Positions 24,198 to 51,406 of a stretch of DNA of 64,000 nucleotides are shown here, in pieces (the stretch's first letter is position 1; every line of letters starts with the position of its first letter). Both the position numbers and the translations under genes were made by a program. The notes under the pieces are model-generated. The model worked only from the letters and a program-made list of their open reading frames with translations, did no database searches and was not told where the DNA came from. Source of the DNA: an uncultured Chloroflexota bacterium (lineage in GTDB: Bacteria > Chloroflexota > Anaerolineae > Aggregatilineales > Phototrophicaceae); assembly GCA_937988705.1 (NCBI GenBank), contig CALKIA010000187.1, forward strand, positions 2,716 to 66,715. Direction: 5' to 3'.

Positions 24198-24529
24198 CAC
24201 CCGGAGCATGTTCGAATCAGCTCCAATTCTGCTGGGGCAGCATATTGCAAGGCTTCTCTATCTGTTTGGCGAAGTTGACTTATAGGCTTGCCGAGTTCAA
24301 TCTACAATACACACTCCAGACATGAACAGATGTCGTATCGCAATGTGAGCTTAGTCACTACGAAATACGACATTATTTCCGTATCTTAAACGAAGGGAGT
24401 GCTGCTTTTATTTCACGATTTACTCGATCTCCATATGGTTAAGGCGGCAATCCGAGAGTGATGGCACATTAACCCTGTCGGTACTCACTTTTACTTATGC
24501 GTTGCAGCTCAAGCGGAGTCTCGGCAGCA

Positions 24530-25912
24530 ATGGCCATCGAGCTTTTTAGTGTTTCCTTGTTCGGCACAATTCTCATCTACGCGCCACTGCTGTCCCTGTC
24601 TGCTTTGATAAACCCTCGCGCGGCAGAGGCCATCACTCAAGCTTACCCGGATGCTACATCGCTCCCACCCGTTCTCTATGAGTTCGGGCAAGCTGTATTT
24701 TCCTCTGCGCCTGAGCCATCTGCCCCGCTCAACGCTCCACTCGACCCTTTCTATCTTGGCATCATTCCAACGCGCGGATGCAATATCGGCTGCAAATACT
24801 GCGATTTCGCCGCGCCCAAGCACATCAGCCCGGTGATGTCCCTTGACACAGCACAACAAGCAGTGGACGCCTACCTCACCCTGCTGAGGCAGGCGGGGCA
24901 TACCGATGGACAAATTCACTTCTTCGGGGGAGAGCCGTTTTATGCGCCCGTGCTCGTGCGCGATGTGGTTGAATACGCCGAGGCAGCGGCGCAAAAGCAC
25001 GGAATTACCTTGCGTTTTGAAGCGACGACCAACGGTGTCTTTGGCGCTGATCTGTGCCAGTGGATTGGCGATCACTTCGATGCGGTTGTTCTCTCGCTGG
25101 ATGGTTTGCGGCAAGACCATGACCGCCACCGTCCAGCACTCAACGGACGCGGAACCTTCGAGATCGTCGCCCGAACCGCACGCAGTCTCTCCGCCAGCCC
25201 ATGCGATCTCATCGTACGCGCTTGTGTCACCGCCGAGTCGGTGGCGTGTATGCCCGATTTCGCCCATTGGATTGGGGCAGAACTCAAACCGAGCATCGTC
25301 TGCTTTGAGACGCTGAGTGTCTCCCCACTCGCAGTTGAAGCCGGATTCGCCGCGCCCGATCCGCATGACTTCGCGCGCTATTTTGACCGCGCCACCGAAA
25401 TCCTGTCTACGTATGGGATTGAGACCGTGACATCTTCTGCCGATATCAGTGAAGCGCGAACGAGTTTCTGCCCGGTGAGCAAAGACGCGCTGATCGTTTC
25501 GCCGGATGGTGCGGTCGATGCGTGTTATTTGCTGGAAAGTGACTGGCAGGCACGCGGACTCGATATGCGGTTGGGGCAGCTGCAAAGCGGCACATTTGCG
25601 CTTGACTCTGCATCTTTGCGTCGCGTCCGCTCGATGCAGGTACAGAACCGCCCGCTGTGCGCCGACTGCCTGTGCCGCTTTCACTGCGCGGGCGGCTGCC
25701 ACGTTCACCACAACACCCACCGCGCACCGGGTCAATTTGACGACTGGTGCATCCAGACGCGGCTGATAACGATTACGCGGCTGCTGCGCGGTTTGGGCGA
25801 ACATGAGCGCGCCGACGCTTTTCTCGCTGACCGTTCCGCATCGGAAATAGCGGTTTGGCAACCGAGTGATCGCCTGATTACGCATCCAATCTCCCAGTCG
25901 GTACCCGAATGA
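24530..25912 (+). CDS. Radical SAM/SPASM peptide/protein maturase 1
   Basis: CNIGCKYC; FFGGEP; TTNG; SLDG. SPASM region C(PVSK)...AC...CADCLCRFHCAGGC...C. Start placed at ATG 24530 after GGAG. Confidence 0.92.
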   Translation: MAIELFSVSLFGTILIYAPLLSLSALINPRAAEAITQAYPDATSLPPVLYEFGQAVFSSAPEPSAPLNAPLDPFYLGIIPTRGCNIGCKYCDFAAPKHISPVMSLDTAQQAVDAYLTLLRQAGHTDGQIHFFGGEPFYAPVLVRDVVEYAEAAAQKHGITLRFEATTNGVFGADLCQWIGDHFDAVVLSLDGLRQDHDRHRPALNGRGTFEIVARTARSLSASPCDLIVRACVTAESVACMPDFAHWIGAELKPSIVCFETLSVSPLAVEAGFAAPDPHDFARYFDRATEILSTYGIETVTSSADISEARTSFCPVSKDALIVSPDGAVDACYLLESDWQARGLDMRLGQLQSGTFALDSASLRRVRSMQVQNRPLCADCLCRFHCAGGCHVHHNTHRAPGQFDDWCIQTRLITITRLLRGLGEHERADAFLADRSASEIAVWQPSDRLITHPISQSVPE

Positions 25913-27291
25913 GCCGAAACAGGAGTCCCAACATGAGCATGTACGTCTACACGATCCCGATTCAAGACCAGTACCTCATCTACCGACCGCTGCGTAAGTT
26001 GGCATTTGTCGGTAACCGGGCGCTCGGCACGATTTGTCAGAACATCGCGGCGGGCAAGCTCACCCGTGAGCAAGTCCCGGACTCGGTGCGTGCCTTCTTA
26101 GACGGCATCGACTTCTTCGCGGATGATCCGCCGCCGCCCACGCCGCCGGATCACGCCTTTCGACCCACCAGCGCCGTCCTGCTGATGACCAACCGCTGCA
26201 ATTTGCGCTGCACCTACTGCTACGCCAACGCCGGAGTACTCGCACCCGTCGATCTGTCGCTGGAACTGGCGCAAACCGTGATCGATCAAGTGGCGGCGAG
26301 CGCACAGGCACAGGGCGGATCGTACTTTGAACTGTGTTTTCACGGCGGCGGCGAACCGACCCAAAACTGGCAGGTCATGCAGCAGGCAACCGCCTATGCC
26401 CGCACGAAGCTGATCCCTGCGAAGGTGGTGATGGTCAGCAATGGGATATGGTCGCCCGCACAGCGCGAATGGGTGCTGACGCACATGGACGGCGTGACGA
26501 TCTCGTTTGATGGTCGCCCCTCAACGCAGGACGCGCAGCGCATTCTCCCCAATGGCGCAGGATCATCGGCGCTGGTGCTGGAGACGATCCACGCGCTTGA
26601 TGAAGCCCATTTCGATTACGGCATTCGGATGACGGCGACTGCCCCTTGGCGCGAAACGCTGCCCGCCGATGTGCGGTTCATCTGCGAGAACACGGGCTGT
26701 AAATCGCTGCAAGTCGAACCCGCGTTCAACACGGTGCGCGGCACCCACCGTGAGTCGTCGGAGGAGCAGAGTCAGGCGTTCGTTGATGCATTTATGGAAG
26801 CGTTTGAGATCGCGGCGCGTGCCGGACGCCAACTGACCTATTCCGGGGCGCGTCCCTGGTTGCTCACGATGAGCTTTTGCACCGCCCCCTACAACGCACT
26901 GATCGTCAATGCGAACCGTGAACTGGTGACCTGTTACGAGATCGCCAGTGATGCTCACGCGCTGGCAAACATCTCTACGATTGGCGCGATTGATGCCGCA
27001 GGCGAATTGACGCTCGATTCAACCCGGCGCGAGTCCCTGCTCAACCGCCTTGAAACCAAGCAGACGGATCACTGTGCCGACTGCTTCGCCCGCTATCACT
27101 GCGCGGGGGATTGCTACACACGCTCAACGAGTGTGATTGACGGGGAATTACAGGTAACAAGCGCGCGCTGCCAGATCAACCGGGCACTGACCGCTCAACT
27201 GCTGCTGTGGTACGTCATGGCAGGGGATGGCGTGTGGAACGGGCAAACAATTTTGACAATGCCAACTTCGCAACTATCAGCCATGTACTAG
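25909..27291 (+). CDS. Radical SAM/SPASM peptide/protein maturase 2
   Basis: CNLRCTYC; FHGGGEP; SNG; SFDG. SPASM region CTAP...TC...CADCFARYHCAGDC...C. ATGA overlap with the upstream gene; ATG 25933 after AGGAG is an alternative start. Confidence 0.93.
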   Translation: MSRNRSPNMSMYVYTIPIQDQYLIYRPLRKLAFVGNRALGTICQNIAAGKLTREQVPDSVRAFLDGIDFFADDPPPPTPPDHAFRPTSAVLLMTNRCNLRCTYCYANAGVLAPVDLSLELAQTVIDQVAASAQAQGGSYFELCFHGGGEPTQNWQVMQQATAYARTKLIPAKVVMVSNGIWSPAQREWVLTHMDGVTISFDGRPSTQDAQRILPNGAGSSALVLETIHALDEAHFDYGIRMTATAPWRETLPADVRFICENTGCKSLQVEPAFNTVRGTHRESSEEQSQAFVDAFMEAFEIAARAGRQLTYSGARPWLLTMSFCTAPYNALIVNANRELVTCYEIASDAHALANISTIGAIDAAGELTLDSTRRESLLNRLETKQTDHCADCFARYHCAGDCYTRSTSVIDGELQVTSARCQINRALTAQLLLWYVMAGDGVWNGQTILTMPTSQLSAMY

Positions 27292-27304: not shown

Positions 27305-28678
27305 ATGTCCGATCAAACCCATAAGCCCAATGAAGATGAGCCGCAAATCTTTGCCGTGAACAAAGGCGCGCGGGGTTGGCACTTCAATCGCCGGAACTTC
27401 CTGAAAGCGACCAGTGTCGCTGGTGCGGCGCTAACCGTAGGCGGATGTCAATCGCAGACTCCTACACCTACTAGCACATCCATGCCAACCAACACGCCGC
27501 CTCCAACCAATACGCCAATGCCAACCGGCGTGCCGCCGGCACGAGGCGCACGGGCGCATGCATCTGACGTTCAGTCAGTTGCTATCAGCGCGGATGGGAT
27601 GCTGCTCGCTTCTGGTAGCTCTGATAACACCATCAAGTTGTGGTCGCTGCCCGATGGCGCGCTACTCAACACGCTCGAAGGGCATGCATCTGAAGTTAAC
27701 TCAGTAGCCATCAGCGCAGATGGGACACTGCTCGCGTCAGGGAGTTACGATAATACCATCAAACTGTGGTCGCTGCCGGATGGCACCCTTCGCCACACGC
27801 TTGATGGGCATGCATCTATCGTTAACTCACTTGTTATCAGCGCGGATGGGATGCTACTCGCTTCTGGCAGTTCTGATAACACCATCAAGTTGTGGTCGCT
27901 GCCCGATGGAGCGCTACTCAACACGCTCGAAGGGCATACAAATTTGGTTGTGTCAGTTGCTATCAGTGCGGATAGGACGCTGCTCGCATCAGGGAGTTAC
28001 GATAATACCATCAAACTGTGGTCGCTGCCGGATGGCACCCTTCGACATACGCTTGAAGGATCTGCATCATATGTTCATTCAGTTGCAATTAGCGCGGACG
28101 GCACTCTGCTCGCATCGGCAGGGTCTGGTCAAAGTAGCGGCAGCAACGGCAACATCAAGCTGTGGTCGCTGCCAGATGGAGCACTTCTCAACACGTTTGG
28201 CGAACCTTATTCTGAAGTTCACCTACTTGCTATAAGCGCGGATAGTACTCTGCTCGCGTCAGGACGTTCCGGTGGTAGTACCATCGAGCTGTGGTCGCTG
28301 CCGGATGGCGTGATGCGTGGATTTATGTCGGACGTTTCCTTTTTTTCAGTTGACATTTTTTCAATTGCCATCAACCCGGATAATACTCTGCTCGCATCGG
28401 CGGGGAGGTCTCCCGGCGGTAGCGGTGGTAGTATCAAGTTGTGGTCGCTAGCGGACGGGACGTATCTACGTGATTTGATAGATATTGCTGTAAGTGAACC
28501 TGAATTTGAAGGAGCACAGTATTCCCCCGATGATGAAGGTAGCAGCGTAATCACCTTATCCTGTGGTTCACCTATTCCCGCCGGATCGACCTGCATCTGC
28601 AATTGCGTGACGGGCAGCGGTTGTTCCTGTGTGGGGCATCGTAGTGGCGGGGGTAGTCATTACTGGTATCCGAATTAA
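27305..28678 (+). CDS. Tat lipoprotein, 7-bladed WD40 propeller with Cys-rich HYWYPN tail (paralog 1)
   Basis: NRRNFLK; lipobox VGGC (Cys48); Pro/Thr linker; 7 WD repeats; tail CGSPIPAGSTCICNCVTGSGCSCVGHRSGGGSHYWYPN. Confidence 0.9.
   Translation: MSDQTHKPNEDEPQIFAVNKGARGWHFNRRNFLKATSVAGAALTVGGCQSQTPTPTSTSMPTNTPPPTNTPMPTGVPPARGARAHASDVQSVAISADGMLLASGSSDNTIKLWSLPDGALLNTLEGHASEVNSVAISADGTLLASGSYDNTIKLWSLPDGTLRHTLDGHASIVNSLVISADGMLLASGSSDNTIKLWSLPDGALLNTLEGHTNLVVSVAISADRTLLASGSYDNTIKLWSLPDGTLRHTLEGSASYVHSVAISADGTLLASAGSGQSSGSNGNIKLWSLPDGALLNTFGEPYSEVHLLAISADSTLLASGRSGGSTIELWSLPDGVMRGFMSDVSFFSVDIFSIAINPDNTLLASAGRSPGGSGGSIKLWSLADGTYLRDLIDIAVSEPEFEGAQYSPDDEGSSVITLSCGSPIPAGSTCICNCVTGSGCSCVGHRSGGGSHYWYPN
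27557..28060 (+). repeat. Four near-identical 126-bp WD40 coding repeats in A-B-A-B pattern
   Basis: Units start at 27557, 27683, 27809 and 27935. Units 1/3 and 2/4 are the closest pairs (252-bp period). Confidence 0.9.
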
Positions 28679-28697
28679 CTGAGAAAGTGCAGCGAAC

Positions 28698-29996
28698 GTG
28701 ACTGAGGAAAGTTTCAACCCTAATCAGAACGAAGACGAACCACAAGTGTACGCCGTGAACAAAGGCGCGCAGGGCTGGCAGTTCAATCGCCGGGATTTCC
28801 TGAAAGCGGCAGGGGTCGCGGGTGCGGCGGGCGCGATAGGGAGTGCCACATCACCGGCGCACGCCCAAGCCGGCGATGGCACTGCGCTGACTCCTGCCGA
28901 CCCGCCGCCTTTGGGCACGCGCGCTCACCGGCTCGGAGTCACTTCAATTGCTCTCAGCGGAGATGGAACGCTGCTCGTATCAGCGAGCAGCGATCAGACA
29001 TTCAAACTGTGGACATTGCCAGATGCTGCCCTCATTCGCACCCTCGATCGACATTTAGGTAGCGTTACCGCTGTGGCCATCAGTGAGGATGGGACATTGC
29101 TCGCGTCCGGCGGCGATTTCATGGATCGAACTATTCGTTTATGGTCGTTGCCAGATGCCGATTATCGCCGCACGCTGCGGTCAGGCCCTGCGCAAGCCAT
29201 CAAGATCAGTCCGGATGGCACCCTGCTCGTCGTAGCTGATGCGGATCATGCTATCCAGTTGCGATCACTGCCGACTGGCGAACTTCTGAATACATTGGAA
29301 GGTCACCGAGACCTGATTTATTCGCTCGCGATCAGTCCGGATGGAAGATTGCTCGCTTCGGGCGCAAGAGACAACACGGTCAAGCTGTGGTCACTGCCAG
29401 ACGGTGAACTCCTCCAGACCCTCGAAGGGCATACTGATGGAATAAAAGCCGTCGCGATCAGCGCTGATGGTCGGTTGCTTGCTTCCGGGAGTGAGGACGC
29501 TACGATCAGGTTATGGACACTGCCCGAAGGAACGCTGCTACGCACGATCAACAATCAATATAATCTTGAATCCCTAGCAATCAGTCCGGATAGTAGCCTG
29601 CTGGCCGTGGCGAGTTGGGATCGTACGGTCAAATTGTGGTCACTGCCGGATGGCATACTCGGCAATACGCTGCAAGGGCACTCTGACGTTGTCAGTTCCG
29701 TCGCGATCAGCGCCGATGGGACTCTGCTCGCCTCTGGAAGCTGGAATGGTACGCTCAAGTTGTGGTCACTGCCAGATGGAGTGTATCTGCGGGAATTTAT
29801 CGACATTGCCGCTAGTGGCCCTGAATTCGAAGGGGTGCAGTATTCCCCCCACGACGAAGGCGCCAGTGTTATCACGTTGCCTTGCGGTTCGCCGATTCCC
29901 GCAGGATCGACCTGTATCTGTAACTGTGTGACGGGGAGTTCCTGTTCTTGTGTCGGATTTAGCGGCGGTAGCGGTCACTACTGGTATCCGAACTAG
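28698..29996 (+). CDS. Tat-exported 7-bladed WD40 propeller with Cys-rich HYWYPN tail (paralog 2)
   Basis: NRRDFLK; AHA|Q SPase I site; 7 WD repeats; tail CGSPIPAGSTCICNCVTGSSCSCVGFSGGSGHYWYPN. Confidence 0.9.
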   Translation: MTEESFNPNQNEDEPQVYAVNKGAQGWQFNRRDFLKAAGVAGAAGAIGSATSPAHAQAGDGTALTPADPPPLGTRAHRLGVTSIALSGDGTLLVSASSDQTFKLWTLPDAALIRTLDRHLGSVTAVAISEDGTLLASGGDFMDRTIRLWSLPDADYRRTLRSGPAQAIKISPDGTLLVVADADHAIQLRSLPTGELLNTLEGHRDLIYSLAISPDGRLLASGARDNTVKLWSLPDGELLQTLEGHTDGIKAVAISADGRLLASGSEDATIRLWTLPEGTLLRTINNQYNLESLAISPDSSLLAVASWDRTVKLWSLPDGILGNTLQGHSDVVSSVAISADGTLLASGSWNGTLKLWSLPDGVYLREFIDIAASGPEFEGVQYSPHDEGASVITLPCGSPIPAGSTCICNCVTGSSCSCVGFSGGSGHYWYPN

Positions 29997-30020
29997 TATA
30001 TTCACATTGAGGATAAGCTC

Positions 30021-31361
30021 ATGACCGACGAAACACACAAACCCGAACACGGCGAAGACGAACCCCAAGTCTACGCTGTGAACAAAAGCTCACAAGGCTG
30101 GCACTTCAACCGGCGCAGCTTTCTGAAAGCTGCGGGAACATCCGCCGCCGGTATGGTCGCGCTGAGTGCATGCAGCACGACACCAGTTCCCACACCAACC
30201 ACTTCGCCCATACCACGCCCGACCAATACTTCACCGCCTACGGTTGACCCAGCCACAACCGAAGGGGTGGCCCATAAGGCAACCATCAATGCGACCGTGC
30301 TTAGCCCGGACGGCAAACTCTTGGCATCGCACTGCTCGGACAGCAGGGATAGGTCGCTCAAGGTCTGGAATACAGCCGACAAGCAGCTTTTGCTAGTGTG
30401 GGAGGATGAGGCGGAATCTCTGCGAGCTTCACCTGGTCCAGTGGTATTCACACCGGATGGCAATGTCCTGATTGCTGGCGCGCACCGTTGGTCATTGTCC
30501 AATTTTACCGTGATCGATGTGATCCCCAACCTAGGCGGCAGTGAATATGCGATCAGCCCCGATGGGACACTCCTCGCGGCGGGTAATGATAATGCTCTGA
30601 TCAACCTGTGGGATCTGAACGCCATGACGGTTCGTAAGATTCTCAGCGGACACCGAGAATACATCGGCGATCTTGTCATCACGCCCGATAGCTCGCGGCT
30701 AATTTCGAGCGATGGGGCGGGACAGATTAGGTTGTGGAGCTTGCCCGATGGGGAACTCCTTGCGGAGATCGAAGCGGACACGATGAGCGTTTCGGCTCTG
30801 GCGATCAGTCCAGATGGCCTGTATTGTGCATCGGGGGCAGGGAGTGGGAACATAAAACTGTGGCGTGTAGCGGATTTGACACTTATTCGCGACATCGCCA
30901 ATGATGGTGGTTGGGTCCACGCGCTCACCTTCAACGCAGACGGAACTCTGTTGGTATCAGGTGATAATGGGGGGATCCGTTTCTGGACACTACCCGATGG
31001 CGGTCTCTCCAATACTGTCGGCTTTAGGAGCGCTGTGCAATCGTTGGTGCTTAGCCCAGATAGCTCTTGGATGATTTCGGGACACGCATCTACAGTGGGT
31101 GGTACCGGCATCATCCGACAGTGGACACTGCCCGATGCCCAGCCCGCCGGTTACTACATCGACATTGCTGCCAACGATCCAGCCTTTGCTGGTGTACAGT
31201 ATTCACCAAATGACAACGGTGCGGGTGTGGTTACGCTGCCGTGCGGTTCACCAATTCCAACTGGATCAACCTGCATATGCAATTGTGTAGCGGGAAGTAG
31301 CTGCACTTGTGTGGGGCATCGTAGCAGCGGTGGCGGCGGACACTACTGGTATCCGAACTAA
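30021..31361 (+). CDS. Tat lipoprotein, 7-bladed WD40 propeller with Cys-rich HYWYPN tail (paralog 3)
   Basis: NRRSFLK; lipobox LSAC (Cys51); Pro/Thr linker; 7 diverged WD repeats; tail CGSPIPTGSTCICNCVAGSSCTCVGHRSSGGGGHYWYPN. Confidence 0.9.
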   Translation: MTDETHKPEHGEDEPQVYAVNKSSQGWHFNRRSFLKAAGTSAAGMVALSACSTTPVPTPTTSPIPRPTNTSPPTVDPATTEGVAHKATINATVLSPDGKLLASHCSDSRDRSLKVWNTADKQLLLVWEDEAESLRASPGPVVFTPDGNVLIAGAHRWSLSNFTVIDVIPNLGGSEYAISPDGTLLAAGNDNALINLWDLNAMTVRKILSGHREYIGDLVITPDSSRLISSDGAGQIRLWSLPDGELLAEIEADTMSVSALAISPDGLYCASGAGSGNIKLWRVADLTLIRDIANDGGWVHALTFNADGTLLVSGDNGGIRFWTLPDGGLSNTVGFRSAVQSLVLSPDSSWMISGHASTVGGTGIIRQWTLPDAQPAGYYIDIAANDPAFAGVQYSPNDNGAGVVTLPCGSPIPTGSTCICNCVAGSSCTCVGHRSSGGGGHYWYPN

Positions 31362-31376
31362 CGGAGGAGGACGCCC

Positions 31377-31814
31377 ATGCGTCAGTACAGTCGCCGCCAG
31401 TTCTTCCCGATGCTCGTGCAGGAATTGATCGTCAACGTCCAGCAGGTGCGGCAGGGGAAGCCCGCTTATACGCTGGAAAACCTCGGCGATTTGCCCGATG
31501 ACAAGCTGGCGGTCATCCGCCCGATGATCAGCCCGCTGTACAGAATCCGCGTGGTCGATGGACAGGTGTGCAGTCAGTTCAAAGACGATGCCGACGCGCC
31601 CGTGCGTCCGCATTTCCCCACCACACCGGAATATCTGGCGGCGTTCAATCGCTTCAACGGTCGGCAGTCGCTCCAAGAGATCGCAGGAGCGGTTGCCGCG
31701 GAATTTGTCTGGGAGACGGACGCTGCGTTCCGTTTCACGCGCGATTTGTTTCTTGCGCTGGCGGCGCAGGGTGTTGTCGTCCCGCAAAATCCGCTGGATA
31801 CCGACCTTGAATAA
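31377..31814 (+). CDS. Stand-alone PqqD/RRE-like protein
   Basis: GGAGGAGG RBS. The C-terminal half FNRFNGRQSLQEIAGAVAAEF...TRDLFLALAAQGVV follows the PqqD pattern (..DG..T..EI...L..EF......DV..FL..L...G). N-terminal SRRQFF. Confidence 0.65.
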   Translation: MRQYSRRQFFPMLVQELIVNVQQVRQGKPAYTLENLGDLPDDKLAVIRPMISPLYRIRVVDGQVCSQFKDDADAPVRPHFPTTPEYLAAFNRFNGRQSLQEIAGAVAAEFVWETDAAFRFTRDLFLALAAQGVVVPQNPLDTDLE

Positions 31815-31960
31815 CAATGCGCTTACATCGATGAAAACACGCGGGTTCACCGTAGTGCTTCACAGCGGCAGCGTGGCGAGTTTGTCATAAGATCAGTTGG
31901 AACAGACGCTCGATATCACCTATTAACGCAGTGATGACGTACTAAGCAGGAGTTGTGAGG

Positions 31961-32890
31961 ATGCCTCAAGTGTTTCTCAGCTACCGACGGAGCGACTCAG
32001 CAGGCCATGCTGGACGGATCTATGATCATCTAGGCAGGCGACTGGGAAAAGATGCGCTATTTATGGACATAGATAGCATCAAGCCCGGCGAAGATTTTGC
32101 GCAGACAATTGAAAAGGCCATTGTCTCCTGCGAGGTTGTCCTTGTGCTAATTGGGCCACATTGGCTATCTGCCTCTGATGGACTTGGCAATCGACGCCTT
32201 GATAATCCCGACGATCCAGTCAGACTAGAGATCATGATGGCACTCCGCCACAAGCTTTGGGTGATTCCGCTTCTGCTGGATAACACAAGCATGCCTTCTC
32301 CAGCGGATTTTCCTTCCGATCTGACCCCCTTTCTGCTGCGTAATGCCCTTGAGATTTCCAATGAGCGTTTCGAGTACGACATCGAACGGCTCGTAACTAC
32401 ACTACTTGAATCTCAATCTCTTGCAGGACTCAGGCGATCGCTTCGTTTGTCCTCCGTATCCGAACAGCGTAGGTTTCGGCGTAATTGGATGATTGTGACG
32501 TTGTTAGCAAGTGTTTGGTGTCTCGTTACATTGATTTTGTATTGGAGTGCTAACACAAATCCGCCTGATAACTTCCTCACTTCGCTTACGTGGGCGGTTG
32601 TCCTACCGATCACTTACGCTGGATTAACCGCATTTTCGCCGATAACACCCCTTGACGCAGGGTTTTGGGCATTTGGGGTGCATGTCGTCTATGCCGGCTT
32701 GATATGGGGGACCGATGCCTATCGTGAGTACATAGGCGTACTTGAAACCACGCAAGAACTGAGTCTACTCAATCTTGCAGTTTACGGCGGGTTCATCCTT
32801 ATCCCGTCCATACTGGTTGGTCTAGTAATTAGCCTTATCAGTTGGGTATGCCATCGCAGAAATCGAAATCCGCCGCTTCATAGCACTTGA
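31961..32890 (+). CDS. TIR-domain protein with C-terminal transmembrane helices
   Basis: VFLSYRRSDS, FMDIDSIKPGEDF, LVLIGPHW, DDPVRLEI (catalytic Glu position) and VIPLLL motifs; about 4 hydrophobic helices after residue ~175. GTG 31955 is an alternative start. Confidence 0.88.
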   Translation: MPQVFLSYRRSDSAGHAGRIYDHLGRRLGKDALFMDIDSIKPGEDFAQTIEKAIVSCEVVLVLIGPHWLSASDGLGNRRLDNPDDPVRLEIMMALRHKLWVIPLLLDNTSMPSPADFPSDLTPFLLRNALEISNERFEYDIERLVTTLLESQSLAGLRRSLRLSSVSEQRRFRRNWMIVTLLASVWCLVTLILYWSANTNPPDNFLTSLTWAVVLPITYAGLTAFSPITPLDAGFWAFGVHVVYAGLIWGTDAYREYIGVLETTQELSLLNLAVYGGFILIPSILVGLVISLISWVCHRRNRNPPLHST

Positions 32891-32971: not shown

Positions 32972-34369
32972 ATGTTGATCTTGAACAACAATGCGCCATC
33001 GTCCACGCTCACGTCAATCCTCACGGGTGATCTGCCGGTTTTCGGGCAGACCACCGCCGAGTACACGCTGCTCTATGCGTCGGGGTGCGTGGTCGCCGCC
33101 GCCCCTGACGCGGCGGAGTCGATGATTCAGGCGTTAAGAAAGAGTGTACCGTCGCCGGGTTGGGGCGATACACTGCGTCGTCATGCCGTTCAAGCTGTGC
33201 AGCGCATGGATCAGCAGATACACGCCCCGTTCGCGCCGGAGTGCCTGACGCTCTATCTGCACAACCAGTGCAATCTGGCGTGCGCCTACTGCTACACCGA
33301 TCCCGATCACCTAGCGGGTGAGCGTTTGCAGCCCGAAGCGATTGCATCGGCGGCGACGCTGGTTGCGGAAAACTGCCGCGCCAAAGGACTGCCGCTCACG
33401 GTAGTGTTTCACGGCGGCGGAGAACCGAGTCTGTTTCAGGATCAGGTGGAACAGGCACTCGCCCTCGTTGATGAGGCGGCACGCCGTCACGGACTGCGGC
33501 AGTTCCGCTACATTGCCACCAACGGAATCATGCCGGAAACGAAAGTGCGCTGGTTAGCCGACCGCTTTGACCTGATCGGGCTGTCATGCGATGGCACGCC
33601 CGATATTCAGGATCGCCAGCGTCCGCGTCATGGCGGCGGCGGAACATCCGCCGCGATGGAACGGACGGCGCGCGGTCTACGAGATATCGGCAAGCCATTT
33701 CATATCCGCGTGACGATCACCCGTGCATCAATGCGCCGCCAAGCCGAAATCGCCGCTTATCTATGTCAAGTGCTTGCGCCGGACGAAATCCATTTTGAGC
33801 CAGTCTACTACGGCGGCAAAACGAACGGCGCTTCGGCGCTCGTGGAAGTCGAAGCTCGGGCATTCGTGGAGGAATTTCTTGCCGCACAGACGATCGCGCA
33901 GCAGCACGGCATTTCGCTCACCTGCTCCGGCAGTCGCGTTAACGCCATTCACGGCGCATACTGTCATGTCTTCCGGCAGGTTTTGAACCTCGTCCCGTCG
34001 GGGACGGCGACCGCGTGTTTCAAGCTGACGCGGCGCGAACAGCTTGAGCGGCACAACGCGCAGATCGGGGATTTCAGCAGCGAAGCTGGTTTCATGCTCG
34101 ATCAGCGCCAGATTTCAGACTTGCGCGAACAACTTGGCGCGCTGCCTGATGCTTGCATAGACTGTTTCAATCGCTTCCACTGTACCCGTTCCTGTCCGGA
34201 TGAGTGCCTCCTATCCGGTTCCGTTGATGCGCAGTCGAGTTTTCGCTGTCAGGTGCAGCAGCTTCTCGCCTACCGGCGCGTTCGCGCTGCCGCCGATGAG
34301 GTGTGGTCGCAGCGACGCGGAGAATCGATTGTCGGAGTCCACCTTGACCACGCTGAAGGAGTATCATAA
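32972..34369 (+). CDS. Radical SAM/SPASM peptide/protein maturase 3
   Basis: CNLACAYC; FHGGGEP; ATNG; SCDG. SPASM region CHVF...AC...CIDCFNRFHCTRSCPDEC...C. Confidence 0.92.
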   Translation: MLILNNNAPSSTLTSILTGDLPVFGQTTAEYTLLYASGCVVAAAPDAAESMIQALRKSVPSPGWGDTLRRHAVQAVQRMDQQIHAPFAPECLTLYLHNQCNLACAYCYTDPDHLAGERLQPEAIASAATLVAENCRAKGLPLTVVFHGGGEPSLFQDQVEQALALVDEAARRHGLRQFRYIATNGIMPETKVRWLADRFDLIGLSCDGTPDIQDRQRPRHGGGGTSAAMERTARGLRDIGKPFHIRVTITRASMRRQAEIAAYLCQVLAPDEIHFEPVYYGGKTNGASALVEVEARAFVEEFLAAQTIAQQHGISLTCSGSRVNAIHGAYCHVFRQVLNLVPSGTATACFKLTRREQLERHNAQIGDFSSEAGFMLDQRQISDLREQLGALPDACIDCFNRFHCTRSCPDECLLSGSVDAQSSFRCQVQQLLAYRRVRAAADEVWSQRRGESIVGVHLDHAEGVS

Positions 34370-35703
34370 TGCTGCTCTCCTCCTTTGATGAATACTTCCA
34401 AAACACCTCTCCGCTGCTCGATCTCGCGCCAGTGCGCGACTCGTGGCTGGCGCTTACACCTACCTATCAGGCTGGCGATTGGATTCTGCCACTTCCCCCT
34501 TGGCGGCATCGCCCTTATTCCAATTCCGGCGAACAGGCGTGGACGATTCTGCGCCGCGATCTCGCGCGAGCAGCTACCGACAAGCCGTTTTGTATCTATC
34601 TCCATGCGCCGTTCTGTTCTGCCAAATGCGGCTTTTGCGATAATTACTCTTTCAAGTTGGGCAATCAGCAGCAGGAACACATCACCGCCTACGTGGATCA
34701 ATTGTGCGCCGAACTGCGCTTGTGGAGTCAGCAGGGGAATCTCAGCCAGCGCCCGGTATCGACCGTTCACATGGGCGGCGGCACACCAACGTTTTTAGGG
34801 GCTGCGGCTCTGGAACAAATCGCGGCGTGCTGCCGCGAGTGTTTCGCCATTTCTGACGAAACTGAATGGGCGCTCGAATCGACTGCGCACGATCTGACAC
34901 CGGAGGTGATCGCCACGATGCATCAGATCGGCTATCGCCGGTTGCACATCGGCGTGCAAACGCTTGAGGATGCGGTGCGTGCGGCAATCGGACGGCGCTC
35001 ACGCGCTGGCGATGTGCTGAACAAGATTGAGTCGGTGTTGGCGCTCGGTTGGGTAGTCAGCGTGGATTTGATCTGCGGGCTGCCGGGGCAGACACTCGAT
35101 GGTTTCTTAGCCGGTATCGACCATCTGATCCGCATAGGCGTTCACGGTTTCTCCCTCTATGAACTGCTCGTCTACCCGCAGAATCAACGCTGGGCGGCGC
35201 GACATGGACTAGTTGATCCGGATCGCCATCAGCTAAATTTCTGGATGTTTCTCGCGGGGGCGCATCTCTTAGAACAGCGCGGATTCAAGAAAAATCTCTT
35301 TAACCATTGGGCAAATGAACAAGATAAAAACATCTACTTCACTTTCCCGACACGGAACGAAGATCTGTTGGCGATAGGCACCATTGCTGATGGCATATTT
35401 GGCGATTACCGCTATCGTCATCCGCGCTATGCGGACTATCTGCGTTCTGCTTCCGCCACCTCACCGGGGCTAGAAGGTGGGTTGTTGCACAATGCTTACG
35501 AAAAACGCCTTTCTCCATATGTTACGGATTTACTCTCCGCCCGTGGTAGTACGCGCTTTGCAGCGATGGTTCCCCAGCTGATGGAGATTTGGCACCAACA
35601 TGGATTGATCACATTGCAAGAGTCCGGCGCATTTGACCTTACACCATCAGGCTCATGGTTTACCGGCAACATGATCGACGAAGTTTATCAGCAGATCAGG
35701 TGA
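34369..35703 (+). CDS. HemN-like radical SAM enzyme (possible class C methyltransferase)
   Basis: IYLHAPFCSAKCGFC, HMGGGTPTFL, IGVQTL, VDLICGLPGQT and SLYEL motifs. Translationally coupled (TAATG) to maturase 3. Confidence 0.85.
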   Translation: MLLSSFDEYFQNTSPLLDLAPVRDSWLALTPTYQAGDWILPLPPWRHRPYSNSGEQAWTILRRDLARAATDKPFCIYLHAPFCSAKCGFCDNYSFKLGNQQQEHITAYVDQLCAELRLWSQQGNLSQRPVSTVHMGGGTPTFLGAAALEQIAACCRECFAISDETEWALESTAHDLTPEVIATMHQIGYRRLHIGVQTLEDAVRAAIGRRSRAGDVLNKIESVLALGWVVSVDLICGLPGQTLDGFLAGIDHLIRIGVHGFSLYELLVYPQNQRWAARHGLVDPDRHQLNFWMFLAGAHLLEQRGFKKNLFNHWANEQDKNIYFTFPTRNEDLLAIGTIADGIFGDYRYRHPRYADYLRSASATSPGLEGGLLHNAYEKRLSPYVTDLLSARGSTRFAAMVPQLMEIWHQHGLITLQESGAFDLTPSGSWFTGNMIDEVYQQIR

Positions 35704-36485: not shown

Positions 36486-37714
36486 TGTATGGTGGAAAAA
36501 CTCTGTCTGACACCGACTATGCCTCAACTAGAAGGGAAGAACGTGCTATGCTTCTCTCCTGTTATTCGATATCGGAGAAGTGATTCCCTTACCAATGGTC
36601 TATCACTTCCTATTGTACTTGACTACGCTCATCTTCGACCTGTTTGCGTCCATCCGCCTTGCACCTGATGAGAAAGACCTGCAGATTGCGCTCCTCCAGC
36701 AGCAACTCCGCGTGCTGAAGCGCAAAGTCAAGAAGAAACCACGTCTCTCGCGACCTGCGAAGTTGATGCTTATGGCCTTGACGACCCATATGCAGCGCCA
36801 AACGCAGCAGTGGCAGCAGCGTTTGCGCGAAGCCGTGTGACCGGTTCAACCTGAAACGGTGCTGAACTGGCATCGAGAGCTGGTGCGTCGGGAATGGGCT
36901 TTTCGGCGACCAAACCATGGAGGACGGCCAAAGCTGGATGGCGAGATCGAGGCGCTGATCGTGCGGAATGTGCGCGAGAACCGCGCATGGGGTACGACAA
37001 AATCCAAGGCGAGTTGTTGAAATTCGGTTTCGTCGTCGATCCAACGACTGTCAAGAACGTCCTGCGCCGCCATCATCTCCTGCCCGCGCCCCAACGCGGT
37101 CAGGGTTCGTGGCGGACGTTTCTGAACCACTATCGACAGCAGCTGCTCGCGTGCGATTTCTTCACCGTCGAAACGCTGCATCGGCAAACGGTGTATGTCC
37201 TCTTCTTCATCGAGCTGGGAACTCGCCGTGTTCAGGTCGTCGGTTGTACCGAACATCCCACTTCCGCTTGGGTCACGCAACAAGCCCGGCAACTCTGTTG
37301 GTCGGTCGAAGGGCGCCAGCCAACGGTGCGTTATCTCCTTCATGATCACGATACCAAATTTCCTGCCTCCTTCGATCAGGTATTTGCTGCCCAGCAGATC
37401 GACGTCATCCACACTCCCATTCGAGCCCCGAATGCCAATGCGTTTGCCGAACGCTGAGTGCGTTCAGTTCGTCAAGAGTGTCTTGACCATCTGCTGATTT
37501 TGAATCAGCGGCATCTTGTCCATGTCCTCACCGAATACATCGACTATTACAATGTGCCTCGTCCTCATCAAGGACTCGATCAGCAAGCGCCTATTGCCAT
37601 ACCACGATCTCCGCAAGGAGTCATCCGATGCCGCGATGTTCTCGGAGGTGTTTTGCACGATTATTACGGCGAGGCTGCTTGAATTCCCCTCGGGTAAGGT
37701 TTTTCCACCTTTCA
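36486..37714 (+). mobile_element. IS481-like rve-integrase element, copy A (inactive)
   Basis: Left TIR TGTATGGTGGAAAAAC; right TIR GTTTTTCCACCTTTCA; transposase pseudogene inside. Confidence 0.8.
36595..37682 (+). pseudogene. Integrase-core (rve) transposase pseudogene A
   Basis: LACDFFTVE, HDHDTKF, NAFAER and RPHQG motifs. Stop at 36838-36840, a 1-bp deletion near 36980, and TGA at 37455-37457. Confidence 0.85.
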
Positions 37715-38112
37715 CTCTATCCTCTTTTCAGAGTTGAGCGAGAAGACTCATACAGTCTGCATCACGACTATCGACGAAGTGCTTGATTCCTGTTTTCTCC
37801 CTCAAATGCGCTAAGTAGCCAGCACAACCCGTTTTCCACAGCTTCTATACACTGTTTGAGATACTGTTGGGCATCGACTGGATCGATTAAGCTAGCAGTG
37901 GATGCGGCGGGTCTGGCGCTAGGCTTACACCAGAGCGTGCTTTGTATTTAGCGTTCTCGAGTGCTTTTCTGATCTTTCTCTGGTCTGCATTCACTAATTC
38001 CTACATTAGGTGTTTTGATAGAATGAAATCCATTGCGCATCCTCTGTGTTGTATCAGTTCATCAAGTGTTCGGTTTGGAACCCGATATTATCAGATTCGC
38101 TGCGGACAAAGC

Positions 38113-38967
38113 TTATCCTATTCGAGGAGGTTTGTTGCGCTGGCGGGTCAACAGTAAATATGCATCCTCCAACGTTGCATCGACGCTTACAGCCTCCAGA
38201 TGAGATGGGCGCTTGAGGGAGCGGACGATGCAGTAATCTCCCTGTGGGGTGATGCGAACAATCGATTCTGGCATTGTTAGCCGTGACAATTGCTCAATAG
38301 GTAGTCGAAGTTCATAAATCTGTCCGGCAGCTGCGGCACACAGCGTCTCGATGTCGCCAGCGTACAAAATATGACCGTCCTGCAGAATGATGACAGTCTG
38401 AGCCAGTCGTTCCGCCTCTTCGGGGAGATGTGTGCTAAAAATCGTCAATCCACTGTATTTCTTCACTAGACGATGGACGTTCTCTCGTTCCGTGACATCT
38501 AAACCGCGACTGAGCTCATCCAGCAGCAGCAGGCGGGGCTGGTTGAGCAGCGCTTGCGCGATCCCCACACGGCGCATTTGCCCGCTGGAAAGCTGGCGGA
38601 AGGGGTGATCTGCGAGGTCATCTAAATGCAGTGCGGCTAACACGCTTGCCGGGCTGCCGCCTCGCAGTCGAGCGAGATAGGTCAGGAGTTTGCGCGGTGT
38701 CAGGGCGGCGGGCAGTTCTACATCTTGCGGCAAGTAACCGATCTGCGTCCGCAGCGCGCGCTGATCGTGCCCGTAGTGCTGCCCCTCAAAGGACAATTCG
38801 CCGGCATCCGGCTGACACAACGTTGCCAATACCCGCAGCAGCGTCGATTTTCCTGACCCATTCGCCCCCAATAGGGCAACCACCCCGTCCGACAAGGTGA
38901 AGCTCACGTCTTGAAGTGCAACTTGTGAGCCATAGCGTTTACTCAGATTGCGGACGATCAGTGCCAT
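38113..38967 (-). CDS. ABC transporter ATP-binding protein (copy 1)
   Basis: GANGSGKS, LSSGQ, LLLLDE and STH motifs. Confidence 0.92.
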   Translation of the reverse strand: MALIVRNLSKRYGSQVALQDVSFTLSDGVVALLGANGSGKSTLLRVLATLCQPDAGELSFEGQHYGHDQRALRTQIGYLPQDVELPAALTPRKLLTYLARLRGGSPASVLAALHLDDLADHPFRQLSSGQMRRVGIAQALLNQPRLLLLDELSRGLDVTERENVHRLVKKYSGLTIFSTHLPEEAERLAQTVIILQDGHILYAGDIETLCAAAAGQIYELRLPIEQLSRLTMPESIVRITPQGDYCIVRSLKRPSHLEAVSVDATLEDAYLLLTRQRNKPPRIG

Positions 38968-39791
38968 TGTGTCAGTGAACGCCCCGACTCGTAAATCAGG
39001 AACAACCCAGCTATCAATACTATCGCTGCTAGGAGCGGCAGCGTGCTGGATAAGCTGAGATGGGCGATAATCGTGCTGGCGTTCGGTATATCAATGGAGG
39101 TCGCCAGCACGATCTCGCGCCACCCCCCGAACACCAGCAGTCCCCACACGAGCATCGGCGCGATCACCCCAGCGAAATTGTTCCAACGGACTGAACAGAA
39201 CAAGGCAATTCCGACTACGCCCAGCATCGGCCCGAACCAGATGAGCAGCAGTCGCCACAGGACGATCTGCAACCCTTGTGTCCAGACCACCAACAAAAGC
39301 AGCAGGGCGACTGTACCCGTCAGCGCCAAGATGAGCGCCAAGCGGATATAGAGAAATTCGAGCGGCTGGATCTGACTGAGCTGCTCAAACTCCCACAGGG
39401 TGCGCGTTGCTGGACGAAAGAGATAGGCTACGCCGATGACAGCGATCAAAGGGGAGAGGACGACCAGACAGAGAGTCGCTTCTGCCCCGCCGACGCCGAT
39501 ACTGAGCAGCACCCCGATCAGCATAACCAACCCGCTCGACCACCAGAACGGCGCTTCTAACAGGCTCATCTGCGCCCATGCTAAGCGCAGCCAATCGCGT
39601 ACCCCTCGGCGGGGGAACATCGGGACAGGCAGCGGTAATTCGGTACGCTGTTTTTCCAGCAGAGGCGTGATTGCTGCCAGCAATCGTCCCGTATCGGGTT
39701 CTGCGACAGCATACTGCTCTAAACGCGCGATCAATGGTTGCACATCGCCCAATTCAGCGCGTTCCTCCGGCGACAAATCATGTTCAATCAT
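38958..39791 (-). CDS. Membrane protein, probable anti-sigma factor/permease (copy 1)
   Basis: Soluble N-terminus plus about 6 TM helices; overlaps the 3' end of the ECF sigma gene. Confidence 0.65.
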   Translation of the reverse strand: MIEHDLSPEERAELGDVQPLIARLEQYAVAEPDTGRLLAAITPLLEKQRTELPLPVPMFPRRGVRDWLRLAWAQMSLLEAPFWWSSGLVMLIGVLLSIGVGGAEATLCLVVLSPLIAVIGVAYLFRPATRTLWEFEQLSQIQPLEFLYIRLALILALTGTVALLLLLVVWTQGLQIVLWRLLLIWFGPMLGVVGIALFCSVRWNNFAGVIAPMLVWGLLVFGGWREIVLATSIDIPNASTIIAHLSLSSTLPLLAAIVLIAGLFLIYESGRSLTQWH

Positions 39792-40320
39792 GGATCACCT
39801 CGGTGAGCGCTAAAAAACCTTTCATCTGCTTCAGGGCATGGAACAGGCGGCTTTTCACCGTGCCGACCGGCGTGTGCGTCACATCCGCGATTTCGTCCAG
39901 CTTCAGATCATGGTAGAAACGCAAAATCAGCACCTCGCGGTGATCGGGCGACAATTTTGCCAGCGCCTGAATGACCGTTTCCCGATCATGGGCGGCAAAA
40001 CCAGTGTCATCGGAAAAAACCTCCGCCTGTTCCTCAAAATCAGCGGCACGCTCGTAACGGTAGCGAGCGGACTTGAAATAGTCGCGTGCCAGATTCCGCG
40101 CCACAGTATAGGCCCATGACTTGAAGTGTGTCGGCGGCACGCCTTGATAGGTGAGCAGGCGTGTAAACGTTTCTTGCGTCAAATCGTCGGCCAGCGCCAC
40201 ATCACCGGTAAAACGACACAAGAACTTGTATAGAGGAACGTGATAACGCTGGACCAATTCGATGAGTGCGGCCTCATTCCCGTGAAGCACCTGTCGATAC
40301 AGCGTTTCATCGTCCAACAT
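39784..40320 (-). CDS. ECF RNA polymerase sigma factor (copy 1)
   Basis: ADDLTQETF, SWAYTVARNLARD and EIADVTHTPVGTVKSRLFHA motifs; GGAGGGG RBS before ATG 40320. Confidence 0.93.
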   Translation of the reverse strand: MLDDETLYRQVLHGNEAALIELVQRYHVPLYKFLCRFTGDVALADDLTQETFTRLLTYQGVPPTHFKSWAYTVARNLARDYFKSARYRYERAADFEEQAEVFSDDTGFAAHDRETVIQALAKLSPDHREVLILRFYHDLKLDEIADVTHTPVGTVKSRLFHALKQMKGFLALTEVIHD

Positions 40321-40975
40321 AGCCCCTCCGACGCCAAGCGCTGTAGGCAGCGTTGAGTGCAAAAAAGATCACCGCACCGCCAATCAGCAGGGCGCGATTG
40401 AGCGCCGGATCTAGGCCTGGCAGCGGGGTCGAGTGGTTGAACAGGAACAAGACCTGCGTGTAGGCGCCCTGAGAGGTCAACTCTCCGTACCAGTAACCGA
40501 CAATCACGCCGGCGGCGATCCAATAGCTGCCGCTGAGGTTGTTGACCAGGAGCGCCAAGCCCGCCAGATAGAGCGCGGGCGCGAAGGCGGGCAGCACCAC
40601 GTGCTTGAAATCGTACTCGCCATAGGCAAAATAGCACAACAGCGCCGCCAGCAGTCCGCTCAAGGCGATGAGCACGGCGGCTTCCAGTGCCCGCAGCAGC
40701 GGTACATACCATGAACGTTCGGCATAGGTGCGGCGCAGCTCATCGAACCCTTCTTCACGTTCAATTGTCATCAGATGCCCGCACGCCAGCCCGCCGGACA
40801 GCGCCAGCGCGAGTTCGAACACGCTCACCATCTGCGCCAACGATGGGAGGGACTGGCGGTTCGTCCAGACAATCCACCCAATGAGCATGTACCCCGGCAG
40901 GATCAAGAGGGGTAACAGGGCTGTGATGCCAAAGACGATGCGCGCTTCGTAATAGACGACGCTTCTAAGCGCCAT
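40307..40975 (-). CDS. ABC-2 type permease (copy 1)
   Basis: About 6 TM helices; IEREEGFDEL loop. Confidence 0.7.
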   Translation of the reverse strand: MALRSVVYYEARIVFGITALLPLLILPGYMLIGWIVWTNRQSLPSLAQMVSVFELALALSGGLACGHLMTIEREEGFDELRRTYAERSWYVPLLRALEAAVLIALSGLLAALLCYFAYGEYDFKHVVLPAFAPALYLAGLALLVNNLSGSYWIAAGVIVGYWYGELTSQGAYTQVLFLFNHSTPLPGLDPALNRALLIGGAVIFFALNAAYSAWRRRGYVGR

Positions 40976-43019: not shown

Positions 43020-43896
43020 GCTGCGCCTCTTTCCCGGAAGCAGCCATCACCGCCATATACCCTTCTTCCAGTTCAGGATTGACCAGCACACCCCGTCCCC
43101 AGGGGTTTTCCGGCGCCACGATGCGCACCTGCAAGCGTCCGTTCACTGTGCGACTGGCCGTGACCCGATACGCGCTTTCGATCTGCTCATACTCGCGTGG
43201 TTCAATGTCAAGCTGCCAGACACGCCCGCTGGCGTGCTGCATGAGCGTTTCAGGTGTACCACTGAAAATGACCTGTCCGCGATTGAGCACCGCGACGGCG
43301 GAGCAACTGGCCTCAATGTCGCCCACGATGTGGGTCGAGAGCAGCACGGTTCGCTCACCGGACAGGCGAGTGAGAAGATTGCGGAAGCGAATCCGTTCTT
43401 CGGGATCAAGTCCGGCGGTAGGTTCATCAACGACGATCAGCTGGGGATCACCGAGCAATGCCTGGGCGATCCCTAAACGCTGTTTCATGCCGCCGGAGTA
43501 ACCACCAACGCGCCGCTTGGCATCTTTTGTCAGGTTCACTTGCTCCAGCAGTGTTTTGACCTGCTTTTGTCGATCGGCGCGGGCTAAACCCTTCATCATG
43601 CCGATGTAATCCAACAGGTCGTAAGCGTTGAGACTCTTGTAGAAGCCGAAATCTTGCGGGATATAGCCTAGGTTTTTCCTTACAAAGCCCGGGTCACGCA
43701 TGACATCTACGCCCCCGACCCGCACCTGACCGCTCGTGACCGGCATAAGGGTCGTTATGACCCGCATCAGTGTCGTTTTGCCCGCGCCATTCGGACCCAA
43801 AAGCCCGAACATGCCCCGATTGATGGAGAGTGAAACGTCATTTAGTGCGCGGAATTTGCCATAATCTTTTACGAGATCGATGATCTCAATCTTCAT
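43012..43896 (-). CDS. ABC transporter ATP-binding protein (copy 1)
   Basis: GPNGAGKT, YSGGMKQR, VDEPTAGLDPEERIRFRNLL and STH motifs. Confidence 0.95.
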   Translation of the reverse strand: MKIEIIDLVKDYGKFRALNDVSLSINRGMFGLLGPNGAGKTTLMRVITTLMPVTSGQVRVGGVDVMRDPGFVRKNLGYIPQDFGFYKSLNAYDLLDYIGMMKGLARADRQKQVKTLLEQVNLTKDAKRRVGGYSGGMKQRLGIAQALLGDPQLIVVDEPTAGLDPEERIRFRNLLTRLSGERTVLLSTHIVGDIEASCSAVAVLNRGQVIFSGTPETLMQHASGRVWQLDIEPREYEQIESAYRVTASRTVNGRLQVRIVAPENPWGRGVLVNPELEEGYMAVMAASGKEAQHV

Positions 43897-43929
43897 GGTC
43901 GAGGCTTTCGGTTATCCACTTTCTTATAG

Positions 43930-43956
43930 GACGACAGGCCACACAAAAAGGTTTAA
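43930..43956 (-). promoter_or_regulatory. Candidate ECF sigma promoter (copy 1)
   Basis: Minus strand TTAAAC-N17-CGTC, 33 nt upstream of the first gene of an operon that encodes an ECF sigma. Confidence 0.55.
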
Positions 43957-44043
43957 AATCGGCTGACTACTTCAGGGGCACCGAAAGCTTATCAAACGCA
44001 ATTGGACACTCAACCATACGGCGAAGCAAGTCGTTCCTGACTG

Positions 44044-45164: not shown

Positions 45165-45562
45165 CTCTATCCTCTTTTCAGAGTTGAGCGAGAAGACTCA
45201 TACAGTCTGCATCACGACTATCGACGAAGTGCTTGATTCCTGTTTTCTCCCTCAAATGCGCTAAGTAGCCAGCACAACCCGTTTTCCACAGCTTCTATAC
45301 ACTGTTTGAGATACTGTTGGGCATCGACTGGATCGATTAAGCTAGCAGTGGATGCGGCGGGTCTGGCGCTAGGCTTACACCAGAGCGTGCTTTGTATTTA
45401 GCGTTCTCGAGTGCTTTTCTGATCTTTCTCTGGTCTGCATTCACTAATTCCTACATTAGGTGTTTTGATAGAATGAAATCCATTGCGCATCCTCTGTGTT
45501 GTATCAGTTCATCAAGTGTTCGGTTTGGAACCCGATATTATCAGATTCGCTGCGGACAAAGC

Positions 45563-51346: not shown

Positions 51347-51379
51347 GGTCGAGGCTTTCGGTTATCCACTTTCTTATAG

Positions 51380-51406
51380 GACGACAGGCCACACAAAAAG
51401 GTTTAA
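51380..51406 (-). promoter_or_regulatory. Candidate ECF sigma promoter (copy 2)
   Basis: TTAAAC-N17-CGTC on the minus strand. Confidence 0.55.

Follow-up and report, generated by a model that had tools for sequence, protein, structure and literature searches.

Why do three neighbouring export signals in a Chloroflexota genome begin with a long, nearly identical run of residues ahead of the twin arginine? The question is raised by a 64,000-nucleotide stretch of contig CALKIA010000187.1 (here called the window; assembly GCA_937988705.1), from an uncultured bacterium of the Anaerolineae. It encodes three tandem paralogs of 432-457 aa, each with a twin-arginine translocation (Tat) signal, a WD40 propeller and a cysteine-rich tail, and all three end in HYWYPN. 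They share an operon with radical S-adenosylmethionine (SAM) enzymes. The original prediction was that the region ahead of the twin arginine (RR), the n-region, doubles as the leader of a ribosomally synthesized, post-translationally modified peptide (RiPP). We put at about 0.68 the probability that the n-region is a leader built into the Tat signal and bound by RiPP recognition elements (RREs), which a housekeeping signal peptidase would remove to leave a modified, exported protein. This reading is based on the motif, which keeps a fixed distance from the RR and accompanies the tail across unrelated protein bodies, on the RRE-bearing neighbours and on the finding that no protease or transporter is conserved.

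The n-region is as long and as conserved as had been claimed. It spans 28 to 30 residues, with the RR at residues 29-30 in paralog 1 and 31-32 in paralogs 2 and 3, and all three paralogs contain E-D-E-P-Q-[IV]-[FY]-A-V-N-K-x3-G-W-[HQ]-F-N-R-R-x-F-L-K-A. A pattern search of the host genome gave 40 Tat-like matches, some of them false Tat calls. In the 27 of these that lie outside this contig and have a Shine-Dalgarno-like start, the median n-region is 7 residues, and only three reach 25 residues or more. The leader motif was not found among these pattern matches outside the three paralogs. When 131,898 reading-frame segments were searched with a profile of the n-region alone, built with the paralogs included, no fourth copy came up (next match at E = 5.1). 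Both ends of the paralogs are conserved and the middle is not: pairwise identity is 0.74-0.84 over the 19 residues before the RR and 0.80-0.96 in the cysteine module, versus 0.26-0.47 in the hydrophobic h-region and 0.35-0.56 in the propeller. Beyond the Tat signal, no Pfam or NCBIfam model covers the leader, and none covers the tail.

In the wider family the core of the motif is P-x-[VIL]-[YF]-x-[VIL]. In the systems we call type A, which combine a short leader with an HYW[YH]P[NCT] end, the AVNK is not kept across 52 leaders and the Trp is present in 35 of them. Leaders were located with a motif-aware pattern anchored on the proline, so the invariance of this residue and its position at RR-16/-17 in 53/53 leaders are partly built in. 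The freedom of third codon positions is not an artefact of this pattern. At the Pro, Val/Ile and Ala codons of the 52 leaders, positions 1 and 2 hardly change, in contrast to the third (entropy 1.7-1.9 bits), and the leader is therefore translated and under selection at the protein level. Secondary translation starts near the RR are possible, since an in-frame ATG, GTG or TTG lies within 12 codons of it in 58/85 leaders (22 ATG; 10 with a Shine-Dalgarno-like site). Paralog 2 itself starts with GTG and has no clear Shine-Dalgarno sequence. A scan for promoters and terminators stayed at chance level.

The leader follows the tail, not the body. A tail profile matched 748 proteins among 7,989 scored candidates, and a leader profile matched 503 cluster representatives; the profile was used as the more sensitive tool, a single-sequence leader search having matched 2 proteins only. 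The leader is present in 29 of 31 tail matches whose bodies are WD40 propellers (23), immunoglobulin (Ig)-like domains (5; PF16158) or SH3 domains (3; PF08239), and the two exceptions start mid-protein or with unrelated sequence. We also examined genome loci seeded by the tail, 65 in number and taken from the best 80 of 144 matches. Across 64 genome loci and the window, 86 of 93 open reading frames (ORFs) that bear the tail module have the leader; the other seven are four contig-end pieces, one ORF at an N-gap and two frameshift pieces whose leader lies on upstream ORFs. The module always holds Asn or Asp in C-x-C-[N/D]-C, as a looser pattern and the N/D pattern each gave 93 ORFs. Asn and Asp are typical beta-carbon acceptors. 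In the reverse direction, the best 150 of the 503 leader-profile matches were scored for a tail (the module or an aromatic-Pro end). A tail is present in 59/59 proteins of at least 400 aa and 9/12 of 300-399 aa, and in 17/35 of 150-299 aa and 2/44 below 150 aa.

Between leader and tail the body may be a WD40 propeller, an NBR1-type Ig domain, an SH3 domain or nothing, and several members of 148-204 aa have no folded body. A search of the Atlas with a body-less member returned unnamed, low-information matches only. The substrates share a conserved N-terminal motif while the remainder varies, as is characteristic of an RRE-dependent leader. Members with Ig, SH3 or other bodies share the gene order R2-X6-R3-precursor-R1-X4-R4-C, as seen in 78 metagenome loci, of which many are short. 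It had been argued that a closed propeller brings the N- and C-termini together. We rejected this proximity as a requirement, because leader, tail and operon are all retained in members whose body is Ig-like, SH3 or missing. The TLxCGSPIP..CxCNC module appears to behave as a small domain, because copies of about 40 residues occur two or three times in tandem (P0016, P0039, P0041, P0059) across Ig, SH3 and body-less members. Some members lack the module, and one lacks any tail cysteines; these still keep the leader and an HYW[YH]P end. One locus carries seven tandem precursors (L022:455-11317).

The phyla represented among the tail-seeded loci are Chloroflexota, Acidobacteriota, Planctomycetota, Bacteroidota, Desulfobacterota, Nitrospirota, Pseudomonadota, Armatimonadota and Verrucomicrobiota, and almost every locus belongs to a metagenome-assembled genome. 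The spread is patchy, with members in 3 of 401 genomes sampled from the phylum Chloroflexota, this genome included.

A second kind of system, type B, shows that the leader form switches together with tail type and enzyme set. Type-B precursors have CxC repeats and no aromatic end, and their longer leader places P-x-F-x-L-x-R-V..DG before a shared P-x-I-V-P-V. The short leader occurs with the HYWYPN end at 32 loci and the long leader without it at 25; two loci combine the short leader with a tail lacking HYWYPN. R1 is found in both types (21/35 type-A and 26/30 type-B loci), while at least one of R2, R3, R4, the class C enzyme, X4 or X6 occurs in 25/35 type-A versus 0/30 type-B loci. The loci are not independent; on a quick R1 tree the label changes four to five times between A and B, and at least three changes are forced by well-supported branches. 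In Acidobacteriota, short-leader substrates are served by B-like R1 enzymes too, which fits a core strand common to the leaders. The fetched DNA includes a radical SAM gene at 53/65 loci and none at the other 12. In all five tested genomes with orphan precursors R1 is encoded elsewhere, as recognition in trans would need.

Two side features concern the type-B precursors. At five loci (L024:11728-13785, L058, L061, L062 and L064) the cysteine tail is followed directly by a Peptidase_S74-like chaperone domain whose S-D-R-x-x-K start lies three or four residues past the last CxC; these proteins carry the database annotation of tail fiber proteins. S74 domains cleave themselves, and by analogy such cleavage would expose the type-B tail. 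In others (P0060, P0061, L056:9716-11764 and L060:9944-11827) an unnamed helical extension follows the cysteine tail, and that of P0060 has no Pfam or NCBIfam match.

R1 is the core enzyme of these systems. Its closest solved structure is CteB (profile match to 5wgg, E 8e-48). The R1 model (pLDDT 93) has 5why and 5wgg as top Foldseek matches, and its N-terminal domain aligns within the CteB match. R1 is likely a thioether former. Its layout of RRE, radical SAM and SPASM domains with a Cys-rich substrate is that of a ranthipeptide maturase, and it falls short of the family cut-offs. No cluster enzyme reaches an NCBIfam cut-off: R1 scores 108 bits versus 340 for PapB, 79 versus 425 for SCIFF and 82.7 versus 453 for QhpD, and a type-B R1 scores 49 versus 525 for TIGR04463. 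An N-terminal RRE-like region is kept in each of R1, R2 and R4. R2, whose start may be 24530, occurs in 20/35 type-A versus 0/30 type-B loci and only beside HYWYPN-type precursors. The class C enzyme, predicted to be of the methyltransferase type, occurs in 16/35 versus 0/30, and R4 is often fused to it elsewhere. R3 and X6 were not found in this genome (assembly 88% complete). A further neighbour cluster, X11, was discarded as an out-of-frame shadow of R1. Fused radical SAM proteins also occur (L048:5934-10679 and L018:16590-19382), with chains of 931 aa (two domains) and 1582 aa (three domains). Some type-A clusters include a B12-binding radical SAM gene and a PMT_2-like membrane protein (L005:13195-14601, L018:12727-14130, L019:1-1704).

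Which protein would hold the leader? RREs are encoded beside the precursors as the N-terminal domain of R1, as the PqqD-like protein X4 and, in other loci, as X6, which reaches the PF05402 cut-off. X4 matches PqqD by profile (3g2b, E 9e-5). Its Foldseek matches include the lasso B1-leader complexes 5v1u, 5v1v and 6jx3 (E 2e-3 to 4e-3), with a methyltransferase ranking ahead (3e-4). We compared leaders and partners by distance matrices, with small samples and many pairs tried. The type-A n-region tracks X4 with a Spearman correlation of 0.62 (n = 25), and with 0.66 in a second set (partial 0.44, permutation p 0.004, n = 15). Corresponding values are 0.38 for the RRE of R4 and 0.60 for the catalytic core of R2. 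X4 is thus the best candidate leader binder in type A, although correlation of this kind does not separate contact from co-inheritance. R1's RRE was dropped as the co-evolving type-A partner, as it gave no correlation signal. In type B, the RRE of R1 must bind the leader if the model holds, because type B has R1 only. An origin of the leader from the first strands of the RRE itself was also considered and rejected (profile comparison probability 0.3%).

The system does not coincide with any of the known systems closest to it. As far as the accessible parts of the cited papers go, it would resemble Crp and QhpC in chemistry and the bufferins and DAG-RiPPs in export, and belong to none of them. 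That an N-terminal leader can serve radical SAM modification of a protein has precedents in QhpC/QhpD (PMC7876137) and CrpA/CrpC (PMC13692751). In the CrpA/CrpB/CrpC system of Methanococcus voltae (TIGR04463), an RRE-radical SAM/SPASM enzyme cross-links C-terminal Cys repeats of a protein-sized substrate, and N-terminal recognition is common to paralogous substrates. It differs in having one enzyme and a C-x-x-Q/D motif, and the accessible text mentions no export signal (PMC13692751). QhpC, of quinohemoprotein amine dehydrogenase, has a 28-residue leader that is required for binding of its radical SAM enzyme QhpD, and cytoplasmic thioether formation precedes export; unlike here, there is a dedicated protease, QhpE, and an ATP-binding cassette (ABC) exporter, QhpF (PMC7876137). 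The present system conserves neither, and has its leader joined to a Tat signal. R1 shares RRE and SPASM domains with CteB of the SCIFF system (CteB/CteA) and PapB (PapB/PapA), which provide its closest solved structure and best family matches. Enzymes of this kind bind the leader as a beta strand, and their precursors, CteA and PapA, are short peptides without signal peptides.

Bufferins and DAG-RiPP lipoproteins likewise receive RiPP-type modification before housekeeping export and cleavage by signal peptidase I or II. Some of the substrates are proteins of more than 30 kDa modified at the C-terminus, and masking of the signal by a partner protein was proposed. [quoted passage not shown] One of these papers argues that RiPPs on the lipoprotein route should be leader-independent (PMC13056109). 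In what these sources present, published RiPP precursors with a signal take the Sec route, and the signals are either dispensable or not proven to act as leaders. TorD and DmsD, redox enzyme maturation proteins (REMPs), offer a parallel in that a substrate-specific cytoplasmic protein binds a Tat signal during passenger maturation. Their job is cofactor insertion and their specificity lies in the h- and c-regions, while the binder here has a predicted PqqD/RRE fold (PMC3316669, PMC13673990). The mapping to the h- and c-regions (PMC3316669) also takes away the support that the original prediction had drawn from TorD/DmsD for n-region binding. No Pfam or NCBIfam match to a REMP-family chaperone was found among cluster proteins, and the small conserved ones are PqqD-like. 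The literature searched, with subscription journals and supplements outside its coverage, contained no published account of the system and no publication on HYWYPN; the supplemental data set of related clusters in the Crp paper, also outside the search, might list members.

Several results weigh against the leader reading. Among the best 150 of 503 leader matches, 60 of the 79 below 300 aa lack a tail, though most of these look like truncated genes. The type-A n-region does not track the RRE of R1 (correlation 0.18 and 0.06; partial 0.02, p 0.38, n = 29; 0.09 in the second set), and over types A and B together the correlation is weak (0.11). The h-region also tracks X4 (0.48-0.54; partial 0.29, p 0.03), and part of the n-region/X4 signal is thus shared ancestry; all these samples are small and drawn from many pairs. 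Leader and core are up to about 400 residues apart, and much more in some type-B members. Related systems weigh against it as well. The Sec signal of bufferins is dispensable for modification on overexpression (PMC11626156), DAG-RiPP enzymes recognise the C-terminal motif alone (PMC13056109) and CrpA retains part of its modification when leader or RRE is missing (PMC13692751).

Some of these points also feed the strongest alternative. The n-region could be a handle for a chaperone (X4 in type A, the RRE of R1 in type B) that delays Tat export in the manner of a REMP, with the enzymes reading the tail and the leader serving timing, not catalysis. Such a handle would fit the missing covariation with the RRE of R1, the documented cases of signal-independent modification (PMC11626156, PMC13056109) and the signal masking proposed for bufferins (PMC12452194). 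The strongly conserved TLPCGSPIP..CxCNC module could be a recognition site of its own, and X4 bears an invariant RRxF. Against the handle speak the N-terminal RRE-like region retained in each of R1, R2 and R4, the leader and operon retained in members without the module, and the longer conserved leader of type B, which has no stand-alone RRE. We regard a purely holding role as unlikely.

Is the RR part of an export signal at all? The Tat model TIGR01409 scores 25.1, 32.6 and 17.9 bits for paralogs 1, 2 and 3, all above its cut-off of 16.7. Each paralog has the RR motif, an h-region and a cleavage-site pattern, and the host genome encodes TatC (187 bits), Lgt, LspA and signal peptidase I. In the family, a hydrophobic stretch follows the RR in 85/85 leaders (12-residue mean hydropathy minimum 0.78, median 1.73), and 45/53 type-A signals have a lipobox or AxA by pattern. 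These findings make it improbable that RRxFL is instead part of the enzyme-recognition leader, with products that stay cytoplasmic or sit uncleaved on the membrane. What favours this second alternative is that neither lipobox nor AxA is seen by pattern in 8/53 type-A and 11/32 type-B signals, and that paralogs 2 and 3 have n-regions of net acidic charge, where a net positive charge is described for those of Tat signals (PMC13673990). X4 fits it as well: its low-confidence N-terminal helix (31377-31500) opens with the invariant RRxF (R6, R7 and F9 in 19 rows) without an h-region or cleavage site, and its weak profile match to the leader covers the RRxF columns only. This helix is possibly a mimic of the Tat motif or a decoy. 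A third alternative, that the motif is a leftover of recent duplication or gene conversion, or an RNA or regulatory element without peptide function, can draw on the tandem arrangement of the three genes but is largely refuted by its retention across at least nine phyla and unrelated bodies and by the codon pattern.

The leader reading, then, is likely because the n-region is tied to tail and enzymes and not to the body, RREs are nearby and no cluster protease is conserved. The original prediction probably holds in its central claim, with the export machinery in place, and loses its propeller and TorD/DmsD arguments. The cluster protease that it had called missing has no conserved candidate: clustering of neighbours at the 65 loci gave no shared protease and no shared ABC transporter. 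Its proposal that signal peptidase acts as the leader protease needs qualification. Signal peptidase would remove the leader, and the tail would stay on a body of 40 kDa; in two of three paralogs a lipobox-like Cys (C48, C51) points to signal peptidase II and a lipoprotein. With their length, no conserved protease and a signal cleavage that would leave the tail on the body, the precursors depart from a classical RiPP.

We propose the following pathway. RREs of the neighbouring radical SAM machinery, with X4 the likeliest in HYWYPN-type systems, would grip the P-x-V-Y-x-V strand in the cytoplasm. The tethered enzymes would then reach the distant C-terminal tail through flexible linkers. R1 would cross-link Cys residues by thioethers, both in the CGSPIP..CxC[N/D]C module and in the CxC repeats, in the manner of CteB, PapB and QhpD, and R2, R4, the class C enzyme and X4 may act on the HYWYPN end by aromatic cross-linking and methylation. 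Tat would export the folded product, with signal peptidase I or II then cleaving off the signal along with the leader. The result would be a protein and not a released peptide: modified, periplasmic or lipid-anchored, and perhaps able to bind metal. That a bound RRE shields the RR until modification is complete is plausible, yet it is the step with the least support, and we think it somewhat less likely than not. The features concerned are collected in Table 1.

Table 1. Features of the precursor operon, in positions of the window.
Feature	Position	Strand	Basis
R2, radical SAM/SPASM with N-terminal RRE-like region	24497..25912	+	PF04055, weak SPASM
R1, core radical SAM/SPASM, CteB-like, N-terminal three-strand/helix RRE-type domain	25909..27291	+	
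Precursor 1: leader-Tat signal, Pro/Thr linker, WD40 propeller, Cys tail	27305..28678	+	
Paralog 1 extended n-region, residues 1-28, candidate maturase leader	27305..27388	+	
Paralog 1 RRxFLK, h-region, lipobox-like VGGC (C48)	27389..27448	+	TIGR01409, sequence
Precursor 1 tail: TLxCGSPIP..CxCNC module, CxC, HYWYPN end	28547..28675	+	
Precursor 2: leader-Tat signal, WD40 propeller, Cys tail	28698..29996	+	
Paralog 2 extended n-region, residues 1-30	28698..28787	+	
Paralog 2 RRxFLK, h-region, AHA (signal peptidase I-type) site	28788..28865	+	TIGR01409, sequence
Precursor 2 tail	29868..29993	+	
Precursor 3: leader-Tat signal, Pro/Thr linker, WD40 propeller, Cys tail	30021..31361	+	
Paralog 3 extended n-region, residues 1-30	30021..30110	+	
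Paralog 3 RRxFLK, h-region, lipobox LSAC (C51)	30111..30173	+	TIGR01409, sequence
Precursor 3 tail	31227..31358	+	
X4, stand-alone PqqD/RRE-fold protein with N-terminal extension	31377..31814	+	profile, Foldseek
R4, radical SAM, type-A only	32972..34369	+	
HemN/HutW-like (class C) radical SAM, type-A only	34369..35703	+	TIGR04107 211 bits, cut-off 400

Two further observations concern the surroundings. Between X4 and R4 lies a gene for a TIR_2 domain with membrane helices (31955-32890); it is absent from the conserved neighbours and has weak similarity to Thoeris ThcB4, far below cut-off. Downstream, 36595-44475 and 44044-51925 form a 7.9 kb direct repeat of 99.2% identity with transposase-like genes at the joints. 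It contains an ABC transporter, an extracytoplasmic-function (ECF) sigma factor and membrane proteins, and is either a tandem duplication mediated by insertion sequences or an assembly artefact.

If the n-region is a leader, it would bring together the fields of RiPP leader recognition and Tat proofreading. In a family of hundreds, the leader appears to lie within the signal, at a distance of 100 to more than 400 residues from the core. More tentatively, the two ends may form a portable tag: a Tat-embedded, RRE-binding leader and a C-terminal Cys/HYWYPN core, with a stand-alone X4-type RRE, equipped with an RRxF of its own, keeping the RR from TatC until modification is complete and up to five radical SAM enzymes decorating any folded passenger between the two ends. 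RiPP chemistry and Tat quality control would then be run from one peptide. The body swaps seen in nature suggest that a protein of choice could be given cross-links or aromatic modifications before its display on the cell surface, and body-less members of 150 residues are cheap test material. Finally, four to five uncharacterised radical SAM subfamilies are tied to one six-residue aromatic end, which makes new chemistry likely.

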